Shown piece after piece: positions 8,644 through 15,268 of a DNA stretch of 59,135 nucleotides. Position numbers and translations under genes: made by a program. Each line of letters starts with the position of its first letter. Position 1 is the first letter of the stretch. The notes beneath the pieces were generated by a model, which ran no database searches, had not been told where the DNA came from, and worked only from the letters and a program-made list of their open reading frames with translations. The stretch comes from a virus (lineage: Duplodnaviria; Heunggongvirae; Uroviricota; Caudoviricetes), in the IMG/VR virus record IMGVR_UViG_3300037455_000543, positions 1-59,135 of that record. One strand, 5' to 3'.

Positions 8644-9570
8644 TTATTCATATTTTATTTCATAACTTATATTTTCTATTTCATCTTTATTAAGAACTTT
8701 ACTATATAGCTTTTTAAGCTTTGCCATAAGTGATTTTGCTTTTTCATGAGACATAGGTCTTGTGTCAATGGTTATTGCAATTTTATTATTTCCATCAACA
8801 GAACCCAAAAATTGTGTATCATATTCTTGATCAAAGAATTTTTGACCATAATAACGGATCATTCTATTTTTCCATTCTTCATCACGACCAGGAACTTCAT
8901 TATACTGTATTCTAGTAGCAATAAATGAAGACTTACCTTCTAGGGCATGTTGATAAATTTCATAAAAATCATTATAACCATTCGGTGTAGATAAAAGAAT
9001 TGTCTGTGTATTTATATGTGCTGCTTGTACTGGAAATACGCTAACAACAAAATCATGTAATACTCGAGCATCACAAAATGCCATTTCATCGAAAACCATT
9101 AAATCTACTGTTTTTCCACATATAGGACGTCTACTGTATGCACCTATAAAAATATAAGTTCCATTTTCAAAGTCGATTCTATTATATGTAGCCTTTTTAA
9201 TATTGACTTTCAAGAAATCTGGTAAACGATTATAAATTTCTTGTACTTTGTTAAGTATTTCTTCTGCTATGCTTTCTTTATTGGCCAATATTGCAATGCA
9301 TTTATCGGAATTGAATAATGCATACCATAAAATATAAATTGCCGAGATTGTAGTTTTGCCACATTGTCTTGGTGCAATTACTATATGGTTTTGCCTTTTC
9401 GTTTCTTCACGATTTTGCCAGCTGTCAGCAAACTTACGTAAAAGCGTTCTTTGAAACCTATATGGTCTAAAATTTGTATAGCCTTCTGCTGTAAGTATTT
9501 TTACGTATTTTATAAATTGACTAATATTTTTAGAACACGTTTCAAACGTGTTTTTTTGTTTGATATTCAT
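8644..9570 (-). CDS. Stand-alone terminase large subunit ATPase domain (T4 gp17-like; nuclease domain absent)
   Basis: YRFQ, APRQCGKTT Walker A, VFDEMAF Walker B, LSTPNG, FDQEYDTQFLGS; only 308 aa. Confidence 0.85.
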   Translation of the reverse strand: MNIKQKNTFETCSKNISQFIKYVKILTAEGYTNFRPYRFQRTLLRKFADSWQNREETKRQNHIVIAPRQCGKTTISAIYILWYALFNSDKCIAILANKESIAEEILNKVQEIYNRLPDFLKVNIKKATYNRIDFENGTYIFIGAYSRRPICGKTVDLMVFDEMAFCDARVLHDFVVSVFPVQAAHINTQTILLSTPNGYNDFYEIYQHALEGKSSFIATRIQYNEVPGRDEEWKNRMIRYYGQKFFDQEYDTQFLGSVDGNNKIAITIDTRPMSHEKAKSLMAKLKKLYSKVLNKDEIENISYEIKYE

Positions 9571-9772: not shown

Positions 9773-10222
9773 ATGCACGAAATTAAAAGTGATAATACAT
9801 TCCGCGGGCCTTCAGAAAGCATGTACTTTGATAGAAGATGTGACATTGTACATGATTTGGCTTTGAAACTTGAAGATAAAGGTTTTAAAACATACGGAAC
9901 AAATGAAGAACTCCGTTGTTATATTCCGTCACCAAAAGAAGAAAAAGAAGGAATTAATTTTAATAATCCTGGTGGTATTGTTATTGAGCCATGTTATGCA
10001 GATATGAATCATTATGGAAATATTGATGATTTCGAAAATCTTATAGTATATATTAGATCTGTTGGCTTAAAAGTAAAGACTACTATGAAAGACTTTAAAA
10101 AGACATTTGATAATAAAGGAATGGTTGTTAAAGCAATTCATGAGTATGAGTCAACCGTAGAACAATTACGTAAGACAATGCAAGATAACTTGTCAATGGC
10201 AGTTACTTTGACTAACACTTAA
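9773..10222 (+). CDS. Hypothetical protein, paralog family P (copy 1)
   Basis: Shared MH..D..R..S...VH.LA..LE..G..T.G.N.EL motif; promoter TTGACA..TATATT. Confidence 0.75.
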   Translation: MHEIKSDNTFRGPSESMYFDRRCDIVHDLALKLEDKGFKTYGTNEELRCYIPSPKEEKEGINFNNPGGIVIEPCYADMNHYGNIDDFENLIVYIRSVGLKVKTTMKDFKKTFDNKGMVVKAIHEYESTVEQLRKTMQDNLSMAVTLTNT

Positions 10223-10235
10223 TAAGGAATATAAA

Positions 10236-10667
10236 ATGCATCAACTTGTAAATGACAATCAATATCGTCCGCTTTCAGAAGCAGTCAGTTTTAGTAAAGC
10301 CCGTGATGAAGTACATGGTTTGGCAATGTATCTTGAAAAATGTGGAATTAATACTTATGGCGAGAATACAGAACTTTATGCTACTGTAAAAGTAGGTAAA
10401 TGTAAATATACAATTTATCCAAGATGGACTTTTAATAATAAAATCAGTATTAAGATTCCGTCATTAGAGACTAATTTTGAAGTGTCAAGAGATAGTCTTG
10501 GAAAGGTATTTAAACCGGGTAGTTTTGTAGTACAAGCTATTTCTGAGTATCAGGCTGCAATGGATGAATATGAAATTAAGGTTGCACCTTTTAGGCAATC
10601 ATTGAAATCAGCGGAAACTGCTTTTAAAAACAGTATCACAATGGCTGAAGAATTGGATAACGTTTAA
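10236..10667 (+). CDS. Hypothetical protein, paralog family P (copy 2)
   Basis: Same N-terminal motif and C-terminal MA..LD. Confidence 0.75.
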   Translation: MHQLVNDNQYRPLSEAVSFSKARDEVHGLAMYLEKCGINTYGENTELYATVKVGKCKYTIYPRWTFNNKISIKIPSLETNFEVSRDSLGKVFKPGSFVVQAISEYQAAMDEYEIKVAPFRQSLKSAETAFKNSITMAEELDNV

Positions 10668-10697
10668 AGGAAGAATATAAAAATAATTATTTTAGGG

Positions 10698-10726
10698 TTT
10701 ACAAAATAAAATAAATTTACTATATT
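10698..10726 (+). promoter_or_regulatory. Promoter of tRNA operon B
   Basis: TTTACA-17nt-TATATT. Confidence 0.75.
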
Positions 10727-10786
10727 TAACAGCGTAAAATAACAAAAAATTAAAAAAGAAAATCATATATAATATAAAGGTTAAAA

Positions 10787-10873
10787 ATGAAAATGCTTAG
10801 TTTAACAATCCTCCTACTCAGTAGCCTGCTCCTTAGCTGGTTATTGCGTCGTAGTATAGTGGGAACTAAGTAG
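10787..10873 (+). CDS. Attenuator leader peptide 1, MKMLSLTILLLSSLLLSWLLRRSIVGTK
   Basis: SD AAGG; 10 Leu (all six codons), 5 Ser (all AGY), 1 Trp; precedes a terminator and the Trp/Leu/Ser(GCT) tRNAs. Confidence 0.85.
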   Translation: MKMLSLTILLLSSLLLSWLLRRSIVGTK

Positions 10874-10903
10874 TTCGATTTTTTAATCGTAATGAAAGAT
10901 TTA

Positions 10904-10936
10904 AAGGTTCCCATAGGTTGGGGACCTTAATTTTTT
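10904..10936 (+). terminator. Attenuator terminator 1 (antiterminator partner GTGGGAACT 10859-10867)
   Basis: AAGGTTCCCA-TAGGT-TGGGGACCTT plus AATTTTTT; the 5' arm GGTTCCCAT can alternatively pair with 10859-10867. Confidence 0.8.
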
Positions 10937-10942
10937 ATATAT

Positions 10943-11015
10943 AGCTCTATGTGGTAATTGGTTAACCGAGGTGACTCCAAATCTCCTGTTCCCTGTTCGA
11001 ATCGGGGTAGGGCTG
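10943..11015 (+). tRNA. tRNA-Trp(CCA)
   Basis: Loop CTCCAAA, acceptor AGCTCTA/TAGGGCT, G73. Confidence 0.9.
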
Positions 11016-11021
11016 TAAAAA

Positions 11022-11095
11022 CGGTTTGTAGACCAACTGGCAGAGTCGACGCACTCAAAATGCGTGTAGTGTGGGTTCGAATCCCACTAAACCGA
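11022..11095 (+). tRNA. tRNA-Leu(CAA), short variable loop
   Basis: ACGCA-CTCAAAA-TGCGT, GTGGG-TTCGAAT-CCCAC. Confidence 0.9.
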
Positions 11096-11106
11096 TAATA
11101 AATTAA

Positions 11107-11180
11107 CGATTCGTAGACCAACTGGCAGAGTCAATGGCATGAGAGGCCATAAAGTATGAGTTCGAATCTCATCGAATCGA
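11107..11180 (+). tRNA. tRNA-Leu(GAG), short variable loop
   Basis: ATGGC-ATGAGAG-GCCAT, acceptor CGATTCG/CGAATCG. Confidence 0.88.
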
Positions 11181-11187
11181 TATATAA

Positions 11188-11261
11188 CGGTTTGTAGACC
11201 AACGGCAGGAGTCAACACGTTCAGAGCGTGTGCAGTGTGGGTTCGAATCCCACTGAACCGA
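11188..11261 (+). tRNA. tRNA-Leu(CAG), short variable loop
   Basis: ACACG-TTCAGAG-CGTGT. Confidence 0.9.
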
Positions 11262-11267
11262 GAATAA

Positions 11268-11351
11268 CGTCATGTGGAGTAATTGGTAGCCTCGCAAGAA
11301 TGAGAGTCTTGTGGTAGAAATACCGTGAGGGTTCGAGTCCCTCTGTGACGA
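11268..11351 (+). tRNA. tRNA-Leu(GAG), long variable arm
   Basis: CAAGA-ATGAGAG-TCTTG, variable arm GGTA-GAAA-TACC. Confidence 0.9.
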
Positions 11352-11360
11352 TAAAATTTT

Positions 11361-11450
11361 GGAGTTGTGCCTGAGTGGCTTATAGGGACGGTTTGCTAAA
11401 CCGTTGAGGGACGTAAAGTTCCTCCGAAGGTTCGAATCCTTCCAGCTCCG
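11361..11450 (+). tRNA. tRNA-Ser(GCT)
   Basis: ACGGT-TTGCTAA-ACCGT, long variable arm, G73. Confidence 0.93.
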
Positions 11451-11458
11451 CTAAATAA

Positions 11459-11532
11459 CGCCAGGTTACCAAATTGGCAAAGGGGCCTGACTTAGGATCA
11501 GGTATTTGCGGGTTCAAGTCCCGCTCTGGCGA
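11459..11532 (+). tRNA. tRNA-Leu(TAG), short variable loop
   Basis: CCTGA-CTTAGGA-TCAGG. Confidence 0.9.
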
Positions 11533-11535
11533 TAA

Positions 11536-11609
11536 CCGGGTCTATCCCAACAGGCAGAGGAATGGGTCTTAAAAACCTTTCAGTTTCGGTTCGAATCCGA
11601 AGATCCGGA
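11536..11609 (+). tRNA. tRNA-Leu(TAA), short variable loop
   Basis: Loop CTTAAAA, acceptor CCGGGTC/GATCCGG. Confidence 0.88.
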
Positions 11610-11643
11610 TTATAGAGAAACTTGAAAAAATTATAGTATAATT

Positions 11644-11856
11644 ATGACAAATTTTGAAATGTGAAAAGAATCACTTACCCCCGAAGAATGGGCGAGTAAG
11701 TTTGTTGAACTGGACTATTGTCCAAGATGTCCTGCATATAATTTCTGTAAAAACTGTAATATAACGAATCCAACAAATTCCGATGGAACAGTTAATACAG
11801 AAGAATGCAATAATACATGCAGAAAAAGATTTATGGCATGGGCTAATGAAAATTAA
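11644..11856 (+). pseudogene. Small Cys-rich ORF interrupted by in-frame TGA at codon 7
   Basis: MTNFEM*KESLTPEEW...CPRCPAYNFC...CRKRFMAWANEN; TGA at 11662. Confidence 0.55.
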
Positions 11857-11917
11857 GGGATTTACTATTATCGATATTTTTCCTATATTATACAATATTA
11901 AATAGGATTAAAAATCG

Positions 11918-12307
11918 ATGCATAGTATTGACCATGATTATCGTTCATATAAACGTAGTCAGAATTATGACTTGTTATGCCGTAGAGTACATGATGTTGC
12001 AGAAAGGCTTGAAAAATTGGGTTATGAAACAAATGGTTTAAATGAAGAGCTTTATATAAAGCTACATATCAGCGAAAAAGAAATATTGTATCTATATATT
12101 CATTGCACTGATGAAAATGATACGATTCAAGTTGAAGACCAACATCTGAGTATCAGGATTCCGACAGCAATAGATGATTTTCCAAAGCTGTTTAATAAAG
12201 AAAGTTATCTTGTAAAAGGATTACTTGAATATAGACAATTATTGAGGCAGTTTAGACTATCAATGACATCAAATCTTGATATGGCTATAAAAATGGATAA
12301 AATATAA
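11918..12307 (+). CDS. Hypothetical protein, paralog family P (copy 3)
   Basis: MHSIDHDYR..VHDVAERLEKLGYETNGLNEEL. Confidence 0.75.
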   Translation: MHSIDHDYRSYKRSQNYDLLCRRVHDVAERLEKLGYETNGLNEELYIKLHISEKEILYLYIHCTDENDTIQVEDQHLSIRIPTAIDDFPKLFNKESYLVKGLLEYRQLLRQFRLSMTSNLDMAIKMDKI

Positions 12308-12313
12308 AAGGGG

Positions 12314-12342
12314 TTTACAAACCGTAAATAATTTACTATATT
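12314..12342 (+). promoter_or_regulatory. Promoter of structured ncRNA
   Basis: TTTACA-17nt-TATATT; predicted start coincides with the RNA 5' stem. Confidence 0.75.
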
Positions 12343-12347
12343 ATAAA

Positions 12348-12476
12348 ATGACGATAGCTTAGTAAAGGTGCTGAAAATTCGGTTCGAGTCCGATTAAGCC
12401 ATGGAATGGTAAAAGCTGTTCGACTCAGCGTTTGATTTGTGGATTATCTGGCAGTTCGATTCTGCAGTATCGTCAT
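12348..12476 (+). ncRNA. Unknown RNA with three tRNA T-arm-like hairpins
   Basis: Closing stem ATGACGATA/TATCGTCAT; TCGG-TTCGAGT-CCGA, GCTG-TTCGACT-CAGC, GCAG-TTCGATT-CTGC. Confidence 0.7.
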
Positions 12477-12680
12477 AAAAACTTGGCGGCTCCGGAACGC
12501 ATCGTAGGACCTCTCCGAACCTAAGGCTGGTAATTCGTTTCATGTAGGAAGTTCCTCGTGAAATGCTACTTACCAATAAGCTGGACGTGCAAACTGTGCG
12601 TCACGTAGAGAATGGGATCGTATTAGCCCGTGAAGTTTGGTTATTTTCTTTGGACTTTAAAAATAACCGTTTTTTAGGGG

Positions 12681-12709
12681 TTTACAAAACAAAAGTTTTT
12701 TACTATATT
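12681..12709 (+). promoter_or_regulatory. Promoter of tRNA operon C
   Basis: TTTACA-17nt-TATATT. Confidence 0.75.
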
Positions 12710-12773
12710 TTACATCGTAAAAAACGAAAACAAGGAAAAATTTTTTATATATAATAATAAAAGGATAAAAGCA

Positions 12774-12866
12774 ATGAACTTACAGTCTTATACATCATCA
12801 TGCATTTCGATTTGTGGACAGCAGTCCTCAATTTATTGCATGTATTCCATTAAGACTGGTGGGTGA
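12774..12866 (+). CDS. Attenuator leader peptide 2, MNLQSYTSSCISICGQQSSIYCMYSIKTGG
   Basis: SD AAGGA; 7 Ser (all TCN), 3 Tyr, 3 Cys, 4 Ile, 3 Gln (all CAG), 1 internal Met, matching the downstream tRNAs. Confidence 0.85.
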   Translation: MNLQSYTSSCISICGQQSSIYCMYSIKTGG

Positions 12867-12894
12867 CACCTAGTAAATTCGTATAGAATTTTAT

Positions 12895-12929
12895 AAAGTG
12901 TCACTAAGAAAGTGACGCTTTTATTTTTT
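12895..12929 (+). terminator. Attenuator terminator 2 (antiterminator partner GGTGACAC 12862-12869, over the leader stop codon)
   Basis: AAAGTGTCACT-AAGAA-AGTGACGCTTT plus T-run. Confidence 0.82.
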
Positions 12930-13009
12930 ATTATATGACTGAACAGACCCTTGAGACGTATGTTGTATAGGAGCGTTTGTTCGGACAATCGGTGAAAATC
13001 CGATATTAT

Positions 13010-13094
13010 GGCAGTTTCGGATAGCGGCAATTCCTGGAGGCTGTAACCCTCCCGCCCTAACGGGCTTCCGTAGGTTCGAGTCCTACAGCTGTCA
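13010..13094 (+). tRNA. tRNA-Tyr(GTA)
   Basis: GGAGG-CTGTAAC-CCTCC, long variable arm. Confidence 0.92.
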
Positions 13095-13107
13095 CTAACA
13101 AATTAAT

Positions 13108-13190
13108 GGGTATGCTGATGAGTTGGAGATCATCTCCGGTCTGTAAAACCGGCGCCTACGGCTTTGGTGGTTCGAATCCACCCATACCCA
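13108..13190 (+). tRNA. tRNA-Tyr(GTA)
   Basis: CCGGT-CTGTAAA-ACCGG, acceptor GGGTATG/CATACCC. Confidence 0.92.
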
Positions 13191-13195
13191 CTACA

Positions 13196-13276
13196 GGCAG
13201 AGGATGACTGATCATCATTGGATTACTCTTGTCCTACACGGTTTCCTAGGACTAAGGATAGGGCACTCTGCTACCA
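13196..13276 (+). ncRNA. tRNA-like element with acceptor stem and ACCA end but no canonical T-arm
   Basis: GGCAGAG/CTCTGCT then A-CCA; internal hairpins GATGA/TCATC and GTCCTA/TAGGAC. Confidence 0.4.
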
Positions 13277-13407
13277 TTTAGTTCGCAGTGACGCTATGCG
13301 AAAGGGAGGAATCCTAAAATAGCGGTCGTGTTTGTGAGGTAAACAAGGTGGTAGGCCACTAAAGTTTTTCGGTATCTTTGGGTAAAAACCGTAGAAAAGT
13401 TTTTTAT

Positions 13408-13495
13408 GCGCTCTTGGGTCGAGCCTGGCCGAAGACCACAGTCTGCAAAACTGTTGTGAGAAATCACCGCGTTGGTTCAAATCCAACAGAGCGCT
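13408..13495 (+). tRNA. tRNA-Cys(GCA) with long variable arm
   Basis: ACAGT-CTGCAAA-ACTGT, acceptor GCGCTCT/AGAGCGC, U73, variable arm GTGA-GAAA-TCAC. Confidence 0.88.
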
Positions 13496-13502
13496 CTAAA
13501 TA

Positions 13503-13564
13503 GCATAAGAAGTTCCTATACGCCCAGTGGGCATCCGACTTGAAATCAGACTAATTACTTCTCG
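13503..13564 (+). ncRNA. Structured motif shared with the TerD-gene 5' UTR
   Basis: GCATA-AGAAGT-TCCT...CTAATT-ACTTCT-CGC. Confidence 0.55.
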
Positions 13565-13607
13565 CTATTGCGCTTTTAGACTTAGTACGCGTCAAAAAGT
13601 CACTCTT

Positions 13608-13683
13608 CCCGGAGTAGCTCAGTTGGTTCAGTAGCGTTTGAATCATAATCAAAAGGTCGTTGGTTCAAGTCCAACCTCCGGGA
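13608..13683 (+). tRNA. tRNA with CAT anticodon (elongator Met, or Ile2)
   Basis: TTTGA-ATCATAA-TCAAA, acceptor CCCGGAG/CTCCGGG; no initiator features. Confidence 0.88.
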
Positions 13684-13930
13684 CTAAGGATTAGAATTGT
13701 TCCTTAAACAATCAGGATATAGACGAAACAGTCCTTGTTCGTAAAATAATTACTTACAAAGCCTCTCTTGATCCAGTCAATCGATGGATATACTGGTAAG
13801 GAAAATTTACATAGGTGCTAAATTGTTAGACGTATAAGCAGTGAAATTTTAGAGTATGAAAGACTAAGACTGAAGTCGCTATTTAATGTAACACTGGTTA
13901 GAACAAAAACTAAATAAATAGAACTATTAT

Positions 13931-14012
13931 CGGCATATAGTGTAATTGGTTAACACGCCCGTCTGATACGCGGGAAACGATGCTTGTCCTAGTTCGAGTC
14001 TAGGTATGCCGA
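13931..14012 (+). tRNA. tRNA-Ile(GAT), enlarged variable region
   Basis: CCCGT-CTGATAC-GCGGG, acceptor CGGCATA/TATGCCG. Confidence 0.85.
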
Positions 14013-14016
14013 CTAT

Positions 14017-14093
14017 CCACAGGCAATAAGCCGATTGGTGCGGCAGCAAGTCTGATAAACTTGTAAGTGTTTGTTCAAGTCAAACTCTGTGGA
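14017..14093 (+). tRNA. tRNA-Ile(GAT), atypical acceptor-D connector
   Basis: CAAGT-CTGATAA-ACTTG, GTTTG-TTCAAGT-CAAAC. Confidence 0.75.
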
Positions 14094-14104
14094 CTAAAAA
14101 TTAT

Positions 14105-14189
14105 TGAGGATTAACCCTAATGGTAAGGGCCTGGTTTGGAATGCCAGCGTGGGTTTACTCACTTGAAAGTTCGAGTCTTTCATCCTCAG
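14105..14189 (+). tRNA. tRNA-Ser(GGA)
   Basis: CTGGT-TTGGAAT-GCCAG, long variable arm, G73. Confidence 0.9.
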
Positions 14190-14591
14190 CTAATAAATAA
14201 GAAAAGCTATAGGTATCATAACAGACTGTCGGAACCTATACACGTAGCATGCAACGTCGAAGATAAGGTCTAAGATTTATAAGTTTGGGAAAAGGTAAAC
14301 TTATACAGCACGGTTCACTGTGAACTATGAACCATTTTTTAGAATTTGTTTAATTATACTTCTCGATAAAGTATATAATTCATGGTTTGTACAGACTATG
14401 ATTAAATGCGGTGCCCGGCGGTCGGGACTGGCCGAAATCGAAAATGTATCTAGTGATCCTAATAAGTAGTTCTTAAAGGGTGAAACTCTAGTTGCCTTCG
14501 GCTTCGTAAAATGGAGTTCAAACGAAGTCATCCCGGTTTCTGGAATGGTCTACCAAGACAAGTGCCTAACTAGCTCAAGAAACCATTTTAT

Positions 14592-14679
14592 GGCGGTGTG
14601 GCCGAGTGGTTTATGGCTTCCGATTTGAAATCGGACGTGGGTTAACAGCCCACCGTGGGTTCGAATCCTACCACCGCCT
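14592..14679 (+). tRNA. tRNA-Ser(TGA)
   Basis: TCCGA-TTTGAAA-TCGGA, long variable arm. Confidence 0.92.
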
Positions 14680-14688
14680 CGAATTTTT

Positions 14689-14772
14689 GGAAGTGTCCCG
14701 CAACTGGTGGCGGAGCTGCTTCGAACGCAGTGAGTCAGAGATGACTTGGAGGTTCGAATCCTTTCACTTCCG
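14689..14772 (+). tRNA. tRNA-Ser(CGA)
   Basis: GCTGC-TTCGAAC-GCAGT, long variable arm, G73. Confidence 0.9.
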
Positions 14773-14782
14773 TTGTTTTTAT

Positions 14783-14853
14783 TGCCGGTTGGTGTAATGG
14801 CAGCACAGGGGTCTCTGAAGCCCTTAGCATTCGATCGTAACGAGTACCGGCAA
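14783..14853 (+). tRNA. tRNA-Gln(CTG), non-canonical T-loop
   Basis: GGGGT-CTCTGAA-GCCCT, U1-A72, T-loop ATCGTAA. Confidence 0.85.
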
Positions 14854-15040
14854 CTATGCTATATGAGTAGTTTAAAATGGCAACTCACCATTTTAGATGA
14901 AAGAGATATAGACCGTAAAGGACAATGCGTTATCAACCCCGCTGGCACGGCGGTCAGGTGGAGACCGGTGTATTTTTAAGATTTTCAAATAAAAATATCG
15001 TTCATAATCTTGAACGATATTTTTTTATATTTGTATTACT

Positions 15041-15268
15041 ATGAATAAAGAATTAGATACAGAAATTGATAATATTATTGAAACTATGGAAGACGATGAT
15101 TCCGGTTTCGTTTTTAATAAACATATCGCAACATATATTTTTGGAATAGCGATGGGAATTCTTATTTCTCTTGTTATTATCGCTGGTATTGGTGAGTCAC
15201 AGCTTGAACATAAGAATTTTAATGACGTTATTACTTCAACAGAAATTATTCAAACAGAGGGAAATTAA
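15041..15268 (+). CDS. Small membrane protein
   Basis: One TM helix. Confidence 0.7.
   Translation: MNKELDTEIDNIIETMEDDDSGFVFNKHIATYIFGIAMGILISLVIIAGIGESQLEHKNFNDVITSTEIIQTEGN

Follow-up and report, generated by a model that had tools for sequence, protein, structure and literature searches.

A candidate leader-peptide attenuator ahead of a Trp/Leu/Ser tRNA operon in a jumbo phage

The leader and the tRNA genes behind it

The window analyzed here, 59,135 nucleotides (nt) in length, is the first 59 kb of the 424,163-bp genome of a phage of the class Caudoviricetes (IMG/VR record IMGVR_UViG_3300037455_000543), which has a G+C content of 35% and carries 50 transfer RNA (tRNA) genes as well as a transfer-messenger RNA (tmRNA) gene. 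The terminase encoded in the window shares about 35% identity with the terminases of T4-like phages, so that the source can be called a jumbo phage. The public runs that contain its sequence are bovine and sheep gut metagenomes, and parts of the region are also found in rumen (bovine and sheep gut) metatranscriptome libraries as assembled contigs, which give no 3' ends, strand, or level and may include DNA carry-over. The subject of this work is the tRNA operon of the window that ends at position 11609, in which a promoter, a short open reading frame (ORF), and a terminator hairpin precede eight tRNA genes, and of which the upstream part is a candidate transcription attenuator.

The features of this locus are given in Table 1. 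The box GGGTTTACAAA..TTTACTATATT that harbors the promoter also precedes other tRNA units in this genome and in relatives, and the conserved box in the 5' untranslated region (UTR) is nearly exclusive to tRNA leaders, ahead of which 5 of its 8 copies in the 424 kb are located. The Shine-Dalgarno (SD)-like AAAGG within that box is separated by 6 nt from the ATG; G enrichment at positions -11 to -8 is typical of the genes of this phage, and an SD-like motif is present at 64% of them versus 24% of control positions. The peptide encoded by the leader ORF (10787-10873) is MKMLSLTILLLSSLLLSWLLRRSIVGTK. All six Leu codons are used in it (CTT x2, TTA x2, CTC x3, CTA, CTG, and TTG), Ser is encoded by three AGT and two AGC, and the single TGG is codon 18. 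The terminator hairpin (10904-10928) is composed of AAGGTTCCC, a loop, and GGGGACCTT, followed by AATTTTTT; its T-run begins 57 nt past the leader stop, and tRNA-Trp starts 69 bases past the same stop and 6 nt past the T-run. Terminator and promoter were both recovered by an independent consensus scan, which identified no further promoter between the terminator and the tRNAs. A first-pass annotation of this DNA had reported the use of all six Leu codons, five AGY codons, and one TGG in the leader, and each of these points was confirmed by the reading of the ORF; the tRNAs that it had listed downstream, namely, Trp(CCA), six with Leu anticodons, and Ser(GCT), were all called by both ARAGORN and Rfam.

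Table 1. Features of the Trp/Leu/Ser unit (window positions) and the six further tRNA units of the genome
Feature	Position	Strand	Details
sigma70-type promoter TTTACA-17-TATATT	10698..10726	+	consensus scan; within conserved box GGGTTTACAAA..TTTACTATATT
Conserved 5'UTR box ATCATATATAATATAAAGG	10762..10786	+	SD-like AAAGG at 10776-10780
Leader ORF, 28 codons plus TAG	10787..10873	+	10 Leu, 5 Ser (AGY), 1 Trp
Region 1, anti-antiterminator strand	10782..10819	+	start codon to Leu11; predicted to pair with region 2 when ribosome-free
Region 2, antiterminator strand AGTGGGAACTA	10858..10868	+	codons 24-28; ends 3 nt before the stop
Region 3	10904..10914	+	5' arm of the terminator plus two loop bases; partner common to regions 2 and 4
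Intrinsic terminator	10904..10936	+	10-bp stem, 5-nt loop, about -15 to -16 kcal/mol, then AATTTTTT
tRNA-Trp (CCA)	10942..11016	+	ARAGORN and Rfam
tRNA, Leu anticodon CAA	11022..11095	+	74 nt, without long variable arm; ARAGORN and Rfam
tRNA, Leu anticodon GAG	11107..11180	+	74 nt; ARAGORN and Rfam
tRNA, Leu anticodon CAG	11188..11261	+	74 nt; ARAGORN and Rfam
tRNA-Leu (GAG)	11268..11351	+	84 nt, ordinary class II shape; ARAGORN and Rfam
tRNA-Ser (GCT)	11361..11451	+	AGY reader; ARAGORN and Rfam
tRNA, Leu anticodon TAG	11459..11532	+	74 nt; ARAGORN and Rfam
tRNA, Leu anticodon TAA	11536..11609	+	74 nt; ARAGORN and Rfam
Sister unit	window 12681..12935	+	promoter 12681-12709, leader 12774-12866 (MNLQSYTSSCISICGQQSSIYCMYSIKTGG), terminator 12895-12921; tRNAs Tyr, Tyr, Cys, Met, Ile, Ser (GGA, TGA, CGA; TCN readers), Gln(CTG)
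Unit	genome 412652		leader MQLVVTTNVTPVNNPKVTFD; tRNAs Asn, Pro, Thr, Met, Val and others
Unit	genome 415154		leader MTYVMNTNNTNPNNNPEVLQD; tRNAs Asn, Asn, Pro x3, Thr, Tyr
Unit	genome 420231		leader MTMNVFEHEFFAAERAAAEFAAAAFEAFCSDTVHRIR; tRNAs Glu, Ala, Phe, Ala, Glu x3
Unit	genome 423102		leader MTKFVVDTHDCKTRRDGRGFGKHDKDRYLHRVI; tRNAs Asp x2, Lys(CTT) x2, Gly(GCC), continuing into Gly(TCC) and His of the window
Unit	genome 325929	-	leader MMSIRKQIRIRKQGSPWF; tRNAs Arg(TCT), Gln(TTG), Lys(TTT), Met, Ile(TAT)

The codons of the leader correspond to the tRNAs that follow it. Sixteen of 27 codons are read by the eight tRNAs, as compared to a background of 0.103 taken from the 212 long ORFs of the phage (binomial p 6.5e-10), and among the 3,249 small ORFs of the genome (ATG-started, 20-40 codons) two attain this cognate fraction. 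The use of all six Leu codons is a weak signal when taken alone (p 0.058), and that of AGY at all five Ser positions has a p value of 0.004. The rare codons CTA, CTG, and CTC are also used.

Seven leaders and their counterparts in relatives

The same architecture was found in seven units of the 424-kb genome, each with a leader that matches its own tRNA block. The recurrent layout consists of GGGTTTACAAA..TTTACTATATT, an A-rich UTR, TTTTATATATAATATAAAGG, a short ORF, and a terminator hairpin. In the five units with sigma70 box that were folded, the hairpin ends 53-57 nt past the leader stop and the T-run follows immediately. When every leader was paired with its own tRNA block, the number of cognate codons was 104 of 180, which is rank 1 of 5,040 permutations (mean, 30.1); the runner-up, with 100 codons, is a swap of two near-identical Asn/Pro/Thr blocks. 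This correspondence extends to synonymous codons: Ser is encoded by AGY (5/5) in the Trp/Leu leader, whose block has Ser(GCT), and by TCN (7/7) in the sister leader, whose block has the Ser anticodons GGA, TGA, and CGA; Lys is AAG (4/4) with Lys(CTT) and AAA (2/2) with Lys(TTT); and Gln is CAG (3/3) with Gln(CTG) and CAA (2/2) with Gln(TTG). The seven units partition the genetic code among them. Six of the seven leaders are not hydrophobic, and the peptides are therefore unlikely to be the functional product.

Two of the units, those at genome positions 415154 and 325929 (minus strand), do not have the TTTTATATATAATATAAAGG box and carry a (T)ATAAATA just upstream of the leader, at 5 nt from the ATG in the minus-strand unit and at about 20 nt in the other. 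This sequence resembles the T4 late-promoter motif, and if a second promoter started transcription within the leader or shortly ahead of it, attenuation could be altered or bypassed at late stages of infection; about 125 copies of TATAAATA are present in the genome, so that one near a leader is not unusual. Another observation concerns the Asp/Lys/Gly/His block, in which genome positions 423503-423583 (L001 ~11504-11584) hold an odd tRNA-like gene. Its anticodon loop is CTACGAA (ACG, Arg), and its acceptor stem and T arm are normal; the D region deviates from the usual form, and 23 nt are inserted. A canonical tRNA-Arg(ACG) is located at the same place in the relative L033, and an Arg(ACG) in this block would explain the four CGN codons of its leader.

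Relatives were retrieved in two ways. The neighboring protein of 143 amino acids (aa) led to contigs from ENA and Logan that share the gene order, and DNA patterns of promoter and UTR box identified dozens of IMG/VR loci, including contigs of 411 kb and 415 kb. Megablast and blastn searches of 50,697 GenBank phage records with the Trp/Leu unit gave no match, and a terminase-based search of IMG/VR for the locus identified no relatives. Identity of the Trp/Leu leader region amounts to 89-94% in phages with a flanking protein at 67-95% identity, and to 63-69% in two diverged groups. Across this range, leader and operon change together. All four operon variants with a tRNA-Cys have two Cys codons in the Trp/Leu leader (MKKVCLTSLLLLSLLSWCF.., MKSLSLQCQLLSNSLLSWCLL..), and the eight variants that do not have this tRNA, including that of the window, have none; the sole variant with Gln(CTG) has two CAG codons in its leader. 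Where the Cys tRNA has left the Tyr operon, the leader of that operon contains zero or one Cys codon instead of three or four, and a Glu/Ala/Phe operon in which two Val tRNAs are also present has a Val-richer leader.

RNA folding and the proposed switch

The 172-nt leader transcript folds with -55.5 kcal/mol (z = -6.05 versus shuffles), and its minimum free energy structure combines a long hairpin, in which the ORF start is paired with the ORF end, with the terminator. Three mutually exclusive helices can be drawn from four regions. Helix 1:2 (10782-10819 with 10857-10883) has -18.6 kcal/mol, helix 2:3 (10858-10877 with 10898-10915) has -14.9 kcal/mol, and helix 3:4, the terminator, has about -15 kcal/mol. 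The core of helix 2:3 had been predicted by the first-pass annotation as a 9-bp pairing of 10859-10867 with 10906-10914, and this duplex was found, formed by GTGGGAACT and GGTTCCCAT with seven Watson-Crick and two G-U pairs and an energy of about -14.6 kcal/mol when its flanks are included; after shuffling of the stop-proximal segment, 1 of 500 sequences equaled it. In all units and relatives examined, a segment over the last codons or the stop is complementary to the 5' arm of the terminator (-9 to -21 kcal/mol), a complementarity that in most of them is matched by 0-4 of 500 shuffles, although each class has a terminator sequence of its own. Within the Trp/Leu class, the third pair of helix 2:3 changes from G-C to A-U in the diverged groups, with a matching change in region 4. 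The terminator-loop base 10914 is T here and C in relatives, which converts the terminal G-U of this helix into G-C. Across 10 relatives, 93% of the cells of helix 2:3 are paired, as compared to 17-54% when the partner is slid.

Folding was repeated with a masked ribosome footprint of 28 nt, and for the decision point the transcript was cut just before the 3' arm of the terminator. The number of expected 2:3 pairs was 0.7 without ribosome and 0.9 with the ribosome at the stop, and the helix likewise did not form with the ribosome on the last codons. Placement of the A site on any of codons 1-16 other than codon 11 gave 9-10 pairs; three relatives gave the same pattern as the Trp/Leu unit. This agrees with the earlier proposal that a ribosome at the stop covers the antiterminator strand and that a stall in the Leu/Ser run frees it. 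In these models the leader would follow the logic of the trp, leu, and thr attenuators, with read-through upon stalling and termination upon smooth translation or none. Beyond what had been proposed before, region 1 is predicted to sequester the antiterminator strand when the leader is untranslated, which would make this a full four-region design of the trp type.

Taken together, these data are best accounted for by a leader-peptide, that is, ribosome-mediated, transcription attenuator that would gate the phage tRNA operon by feedback on tRNA supply, a reading to which we assign a probability of roughly 0.8. Sequence anatomy, codon-anticodon match, recurrence, co-variation, and alternative pairings are observed, and from these we infer that the ORF is translated, that transcription and translation are coupled, and that read-through is regulated. 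Host RNA polymerase would start at the sigma70-type promoter and transcribe the 28-codon leader, trailed by a ribosome loaded at the SD site. If Leu and AGY-Ser codons, and perhaps the Trp codon, are decoded fast, the ribosome would reach the last codons or the TAG and cover region 2 (10858-10868), so that region 3 would pair with region 4, the terminator would form, and transcription would stop at the T-run 6 nt before tRNA-Trp. If the charged tRNAs are scarce, the ribosome would stall within codons 4-16, melt region 1, and free region 2, which would capture the emerging 5' arm of the terminator and permit read-through into Trp, Leu x6, and Ser(GCT). In an untranslated leader, regions 1 and 2 would fold together and termination would follow. 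Since read-through would supply exactly the tRNAs that the stalled ribosome is short of, the circuit would be a negative feedback on decoding capacity, by which the phage would make the tRNA block on demand.

Several findings weigh against this reading. When the complete terminator was included in the folding, which covered the two units of the window and the Glu/Ala/Phe unit, the terminator was favored at every ribosome position (P ~0.96 for the Trp/Leu unit). A thermodynamic switch at equilibrium was therefore rejected, and the switch can only be a kinetic, co-transcriptional one that would depend on the kinetics of transcription and on coupling in the host. Folding with a masked ribosome, which had been named as a check of the earlier proposal, bears it out at the decision point and not with the full terminator present. 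When codons 17-20 (Ser, Trp, Leu, Leu) occupy the A site, only 1-2 pairs of helix 2:3 are expected at the decision point. This low value arises because the model allows helix 1:2 to close again around the ribosome through linkers no longer than 8 nt, a pairing that is probably sterically impossible. As Trp is represented by codon 18 alone, its sensing is doubtful unless sterics forbid that pairing, and it is the least secure part of the model. Furthermore, 11 of the 27 leader codons are non-cognate (for example, CGT CGT), and among relatives, leader CTG codons and Leu(CAG) tRNAs do not vary together. Lastly, only one of the six tRNAs with Leu anticodons has the long variable arm that defines bacterial tRNA-Leu; the other five measure 74 nt without it, and their acceptance of leucine is putative. 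These 74-nt tRNAs (window 11022-11261 and 11459-11609; L002 11247-11658; L004 11243-11619) have C1-G72 and A73. In close relatives, the corresponding operon positions are occupied by ordinary class II tRNA-Leu of 82-90 nt that carry identical anticodons, and in some operons both shapes occur side by side.

The leader might instead be a non-specific attenuator that reports only whether translation runs, through coupling or global ribosome availability, with a codon bias that is a by-product of copying neighboring sequence. The terminator/antiterminator geometry would indeed respond to any slowing of the ribosome, and three of the five classes folded (Tyr, Glu/Ala/Phe, and Asp/Lys/Gly/His) read through when untranslated, from which it follows that the designs are not uniform. 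However, a general sensor needs none of the matches described above: seven differing leader compositions each match their own block, the partition of synonymous codons tracks the anticodons, and leader composition shifts as tRNAs move between operons. This explanation is improbable. The same can be said of a post-transcriptional role, in which the ribosome would alter processing or stability of the precursor, for instance, the access of RNase P or RNase E to tRNA-Trp, and the hairpin would be a leaky constitutive terminator or a processing signal. The distance of only 6 nt between the T-run and the first tRNA and the thermodynamic dominance of the terminator in all states are in its favor, but it leaves unexplained region 1 as well as the complementarity of the last codons to the 5' arm of the terminator, which is present in every unit in differing sequences and with compensatory changes.

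That the product is a small hydrophobic membrane peptide, with a terminator that merely ends a short transcript and tRNAs made by read-through or from elsewhere, is very unlikely. The sequence LSLTILLLSSLLLSWLL could span a membrane with its 17-residue hydrophobic core, and 89-94% DNA identity is maintained in close relatives, yet the sister leaders are acidic and Ala-rich, basic and Asp-rich, Tyr/Cys/Ser-rich, or Asn/Pro/Thr-rich under the same promoter, UTR, and geometry; moreover, the rare CTA, CTG, and CTC are used, AGY is exclusive, and no second promoter separates the terminator from the tRNAs. An untranslated structured 5' leader with a fortuitous Leu/Ser-rich frame, compatible with the p value of 0.058 for the use of six Leu codons, is hardly credible in view of the binomial p of 6.5e-10, the permutation rank of 1/5,040, and the co-variation of leader and operon in relatives.

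A wider view of the attenuator reading is that the seven attenuators form a codon-resolved array of sensors of the host tRNA pool, which would serve inducible counter-defence and homeostasis and not a constitutive supplement to codon usage. Depletion or cleavage of tRNAs by a defence nuclease, or by shut-off of the host by the phage, would stall only the leader with the corresponding codons; the matching block of replacement tRNAs would be switched on, and switched off again once decoding recovers. This view is tentative, and we incline against it more than toward it.

Leader-peptide attenuators of amino acid operons are well known from enterobacteria, namely, leuL, thrL, ilvL/ivbL, hisL, pheL, and trpL. 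The phage unit shares with all of these the promoter, a short ORF rich in regulatory codons, the terminator, an antiterminator strand at the ORF end, and a 1:2 anti-antiterminator, and like thrL and ilvL it samples several amino acids at once. In contrast to them, it is encoded by a phage, occurs in seven codon-partitioned copies, and has codons that discriminate isoacceptors (AAG/AAA, CAG/CAA, and AGY/TCN); its regulated genes would be tRNAs, and the sensed molecule would be the product, which would make the feedback direct. An Rfam cmscan of 10600-15100 (E up to 0.1) returned no match to Leu_leader, Trp_leader, Thr_leader, His_leader, T-box (RF00230), or any further cis-regulatory family; only tRNA reached the gathering score, and the sub-threshold hits were two plastid UTR families on the minus strand and the sRNA sX4. 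The unit thus appears to function like the Rfam leader families without being homologous to them. Attenuation also controls an aminoacyl-tRNA synthetase operon of Escherichia coli, pheST, through the leader pheM. This is likewise leader-peptide attenuation applied to a component of the translation apparatus, but pheM is chromosomal and concerns one amino acid and a synthetase, whereas the phage unit would control a set of tRNA genes. T-box riboswitches are also transcription attenuators that report tRNA status by a choice between terminator and antiterminator. They recognize uncharged tRNA by direct binding, with a specifier codon and the T-box sequence as contacts, and work without a ribosome, whereas the phage unit has an ORF preceded by an SD motif.

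As an array of phage tRNA genes, the operon resembles the tRNA clusters of T4, T5, vibriophages, and mycobacteriophages. Such arrays are thought to compensate for codon usage or loss of host tRNAs; why phages carry tRNA genes is debated, with compensation of codon usage, replacement after host shut-off, and escape from tRNA-cleaving defences as the candidate reasons. The tRNA region of T5 was considered as a precedent and rejected, as the small ORFs annotated there resemble ordinary small proteins and, on inspection by eye, their codons do not match. Full-text searches, the coverage of which leaves out most papers of the 1980s, yielded no paper in which tRNA operons of phages or bacteria are controlled by a leader peptide or by attenuation. 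The mechanism itself is known; what would be new, judging from the sequences, is the target and the feedback topology, with phage tRNA genes in seven isoacceptor-resolved copies. Should this be correct, the phage gauges its decoding capacity at the level of single codons and delivers tRNAs as they are needed, which would favor the replacement and counter-defence views of phage tRNA genes. Attenuation, a textbook mechanism, would then also govern genes of a new class, whose product is itself the molecule sensed, and the leaders would represent natural, compact, isoacceptor-specific sensors of tRNA availability.

Neighboring genes and further tRNA-like elements

The terminase ORF (window 8644-9570, minus strand; 308 aa) is the sole minus-strand gene among plus-strand neighbors. 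Its similarity to T4-type large terminases is confined to their N-terminal ATPase part (Terminase_6N in relatives), so that the nuclease part is either encoded elsewhere or missing. Three paralogous small proteins of 149, 143, and 129 aa are encoded at 9773-10222, 10236-10667, and 11918-12307, between and beside the tRNA units; they contain no Pfam domain, and their homologues hold the same position in relatives.

A third copy of the promoter box (12314-12342) is followed, instead of by a leader, by a conserved and apparently non-coding stretch of about 330 nt (box and stretch, 12314-12680). It contains tRNA-like pieces, in which GACGATA...TATCGTC could form an acceptor-like stem that encloses two hairpins resembling T arms, and a T-run near 12670 forms its end. 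The stretch is maintained in L002 and L004, and no Rfam family matched it. A spacer element that starts with GAAGTTCCTAT and ends with TACTTCTCGC recurs in tRNA operons (window 13499-13556, genome 415017-415094, and L006 ~10889-10967). Its longer copies have a T-arm-like hairpin and a UUCG-type loop at the place of the anticodon loop; the element is not called as a tRNA by ARAGORN or Rfam. When ARAGORN was run with introns on the uncalled tRNA-like spacers, the calls were inconsistent. Finally, genome positions 419904-420120 (L001 7905-8117) comprise a further promoter box and, behind it, a tRNA of roughly 111 nt that scores 53 bits in Rfam. ARAGORN reads it, as Arg(CCT), only if 27 nt are taken as an insert in the anticodon region, and it may be an intron-bearing tRNA.

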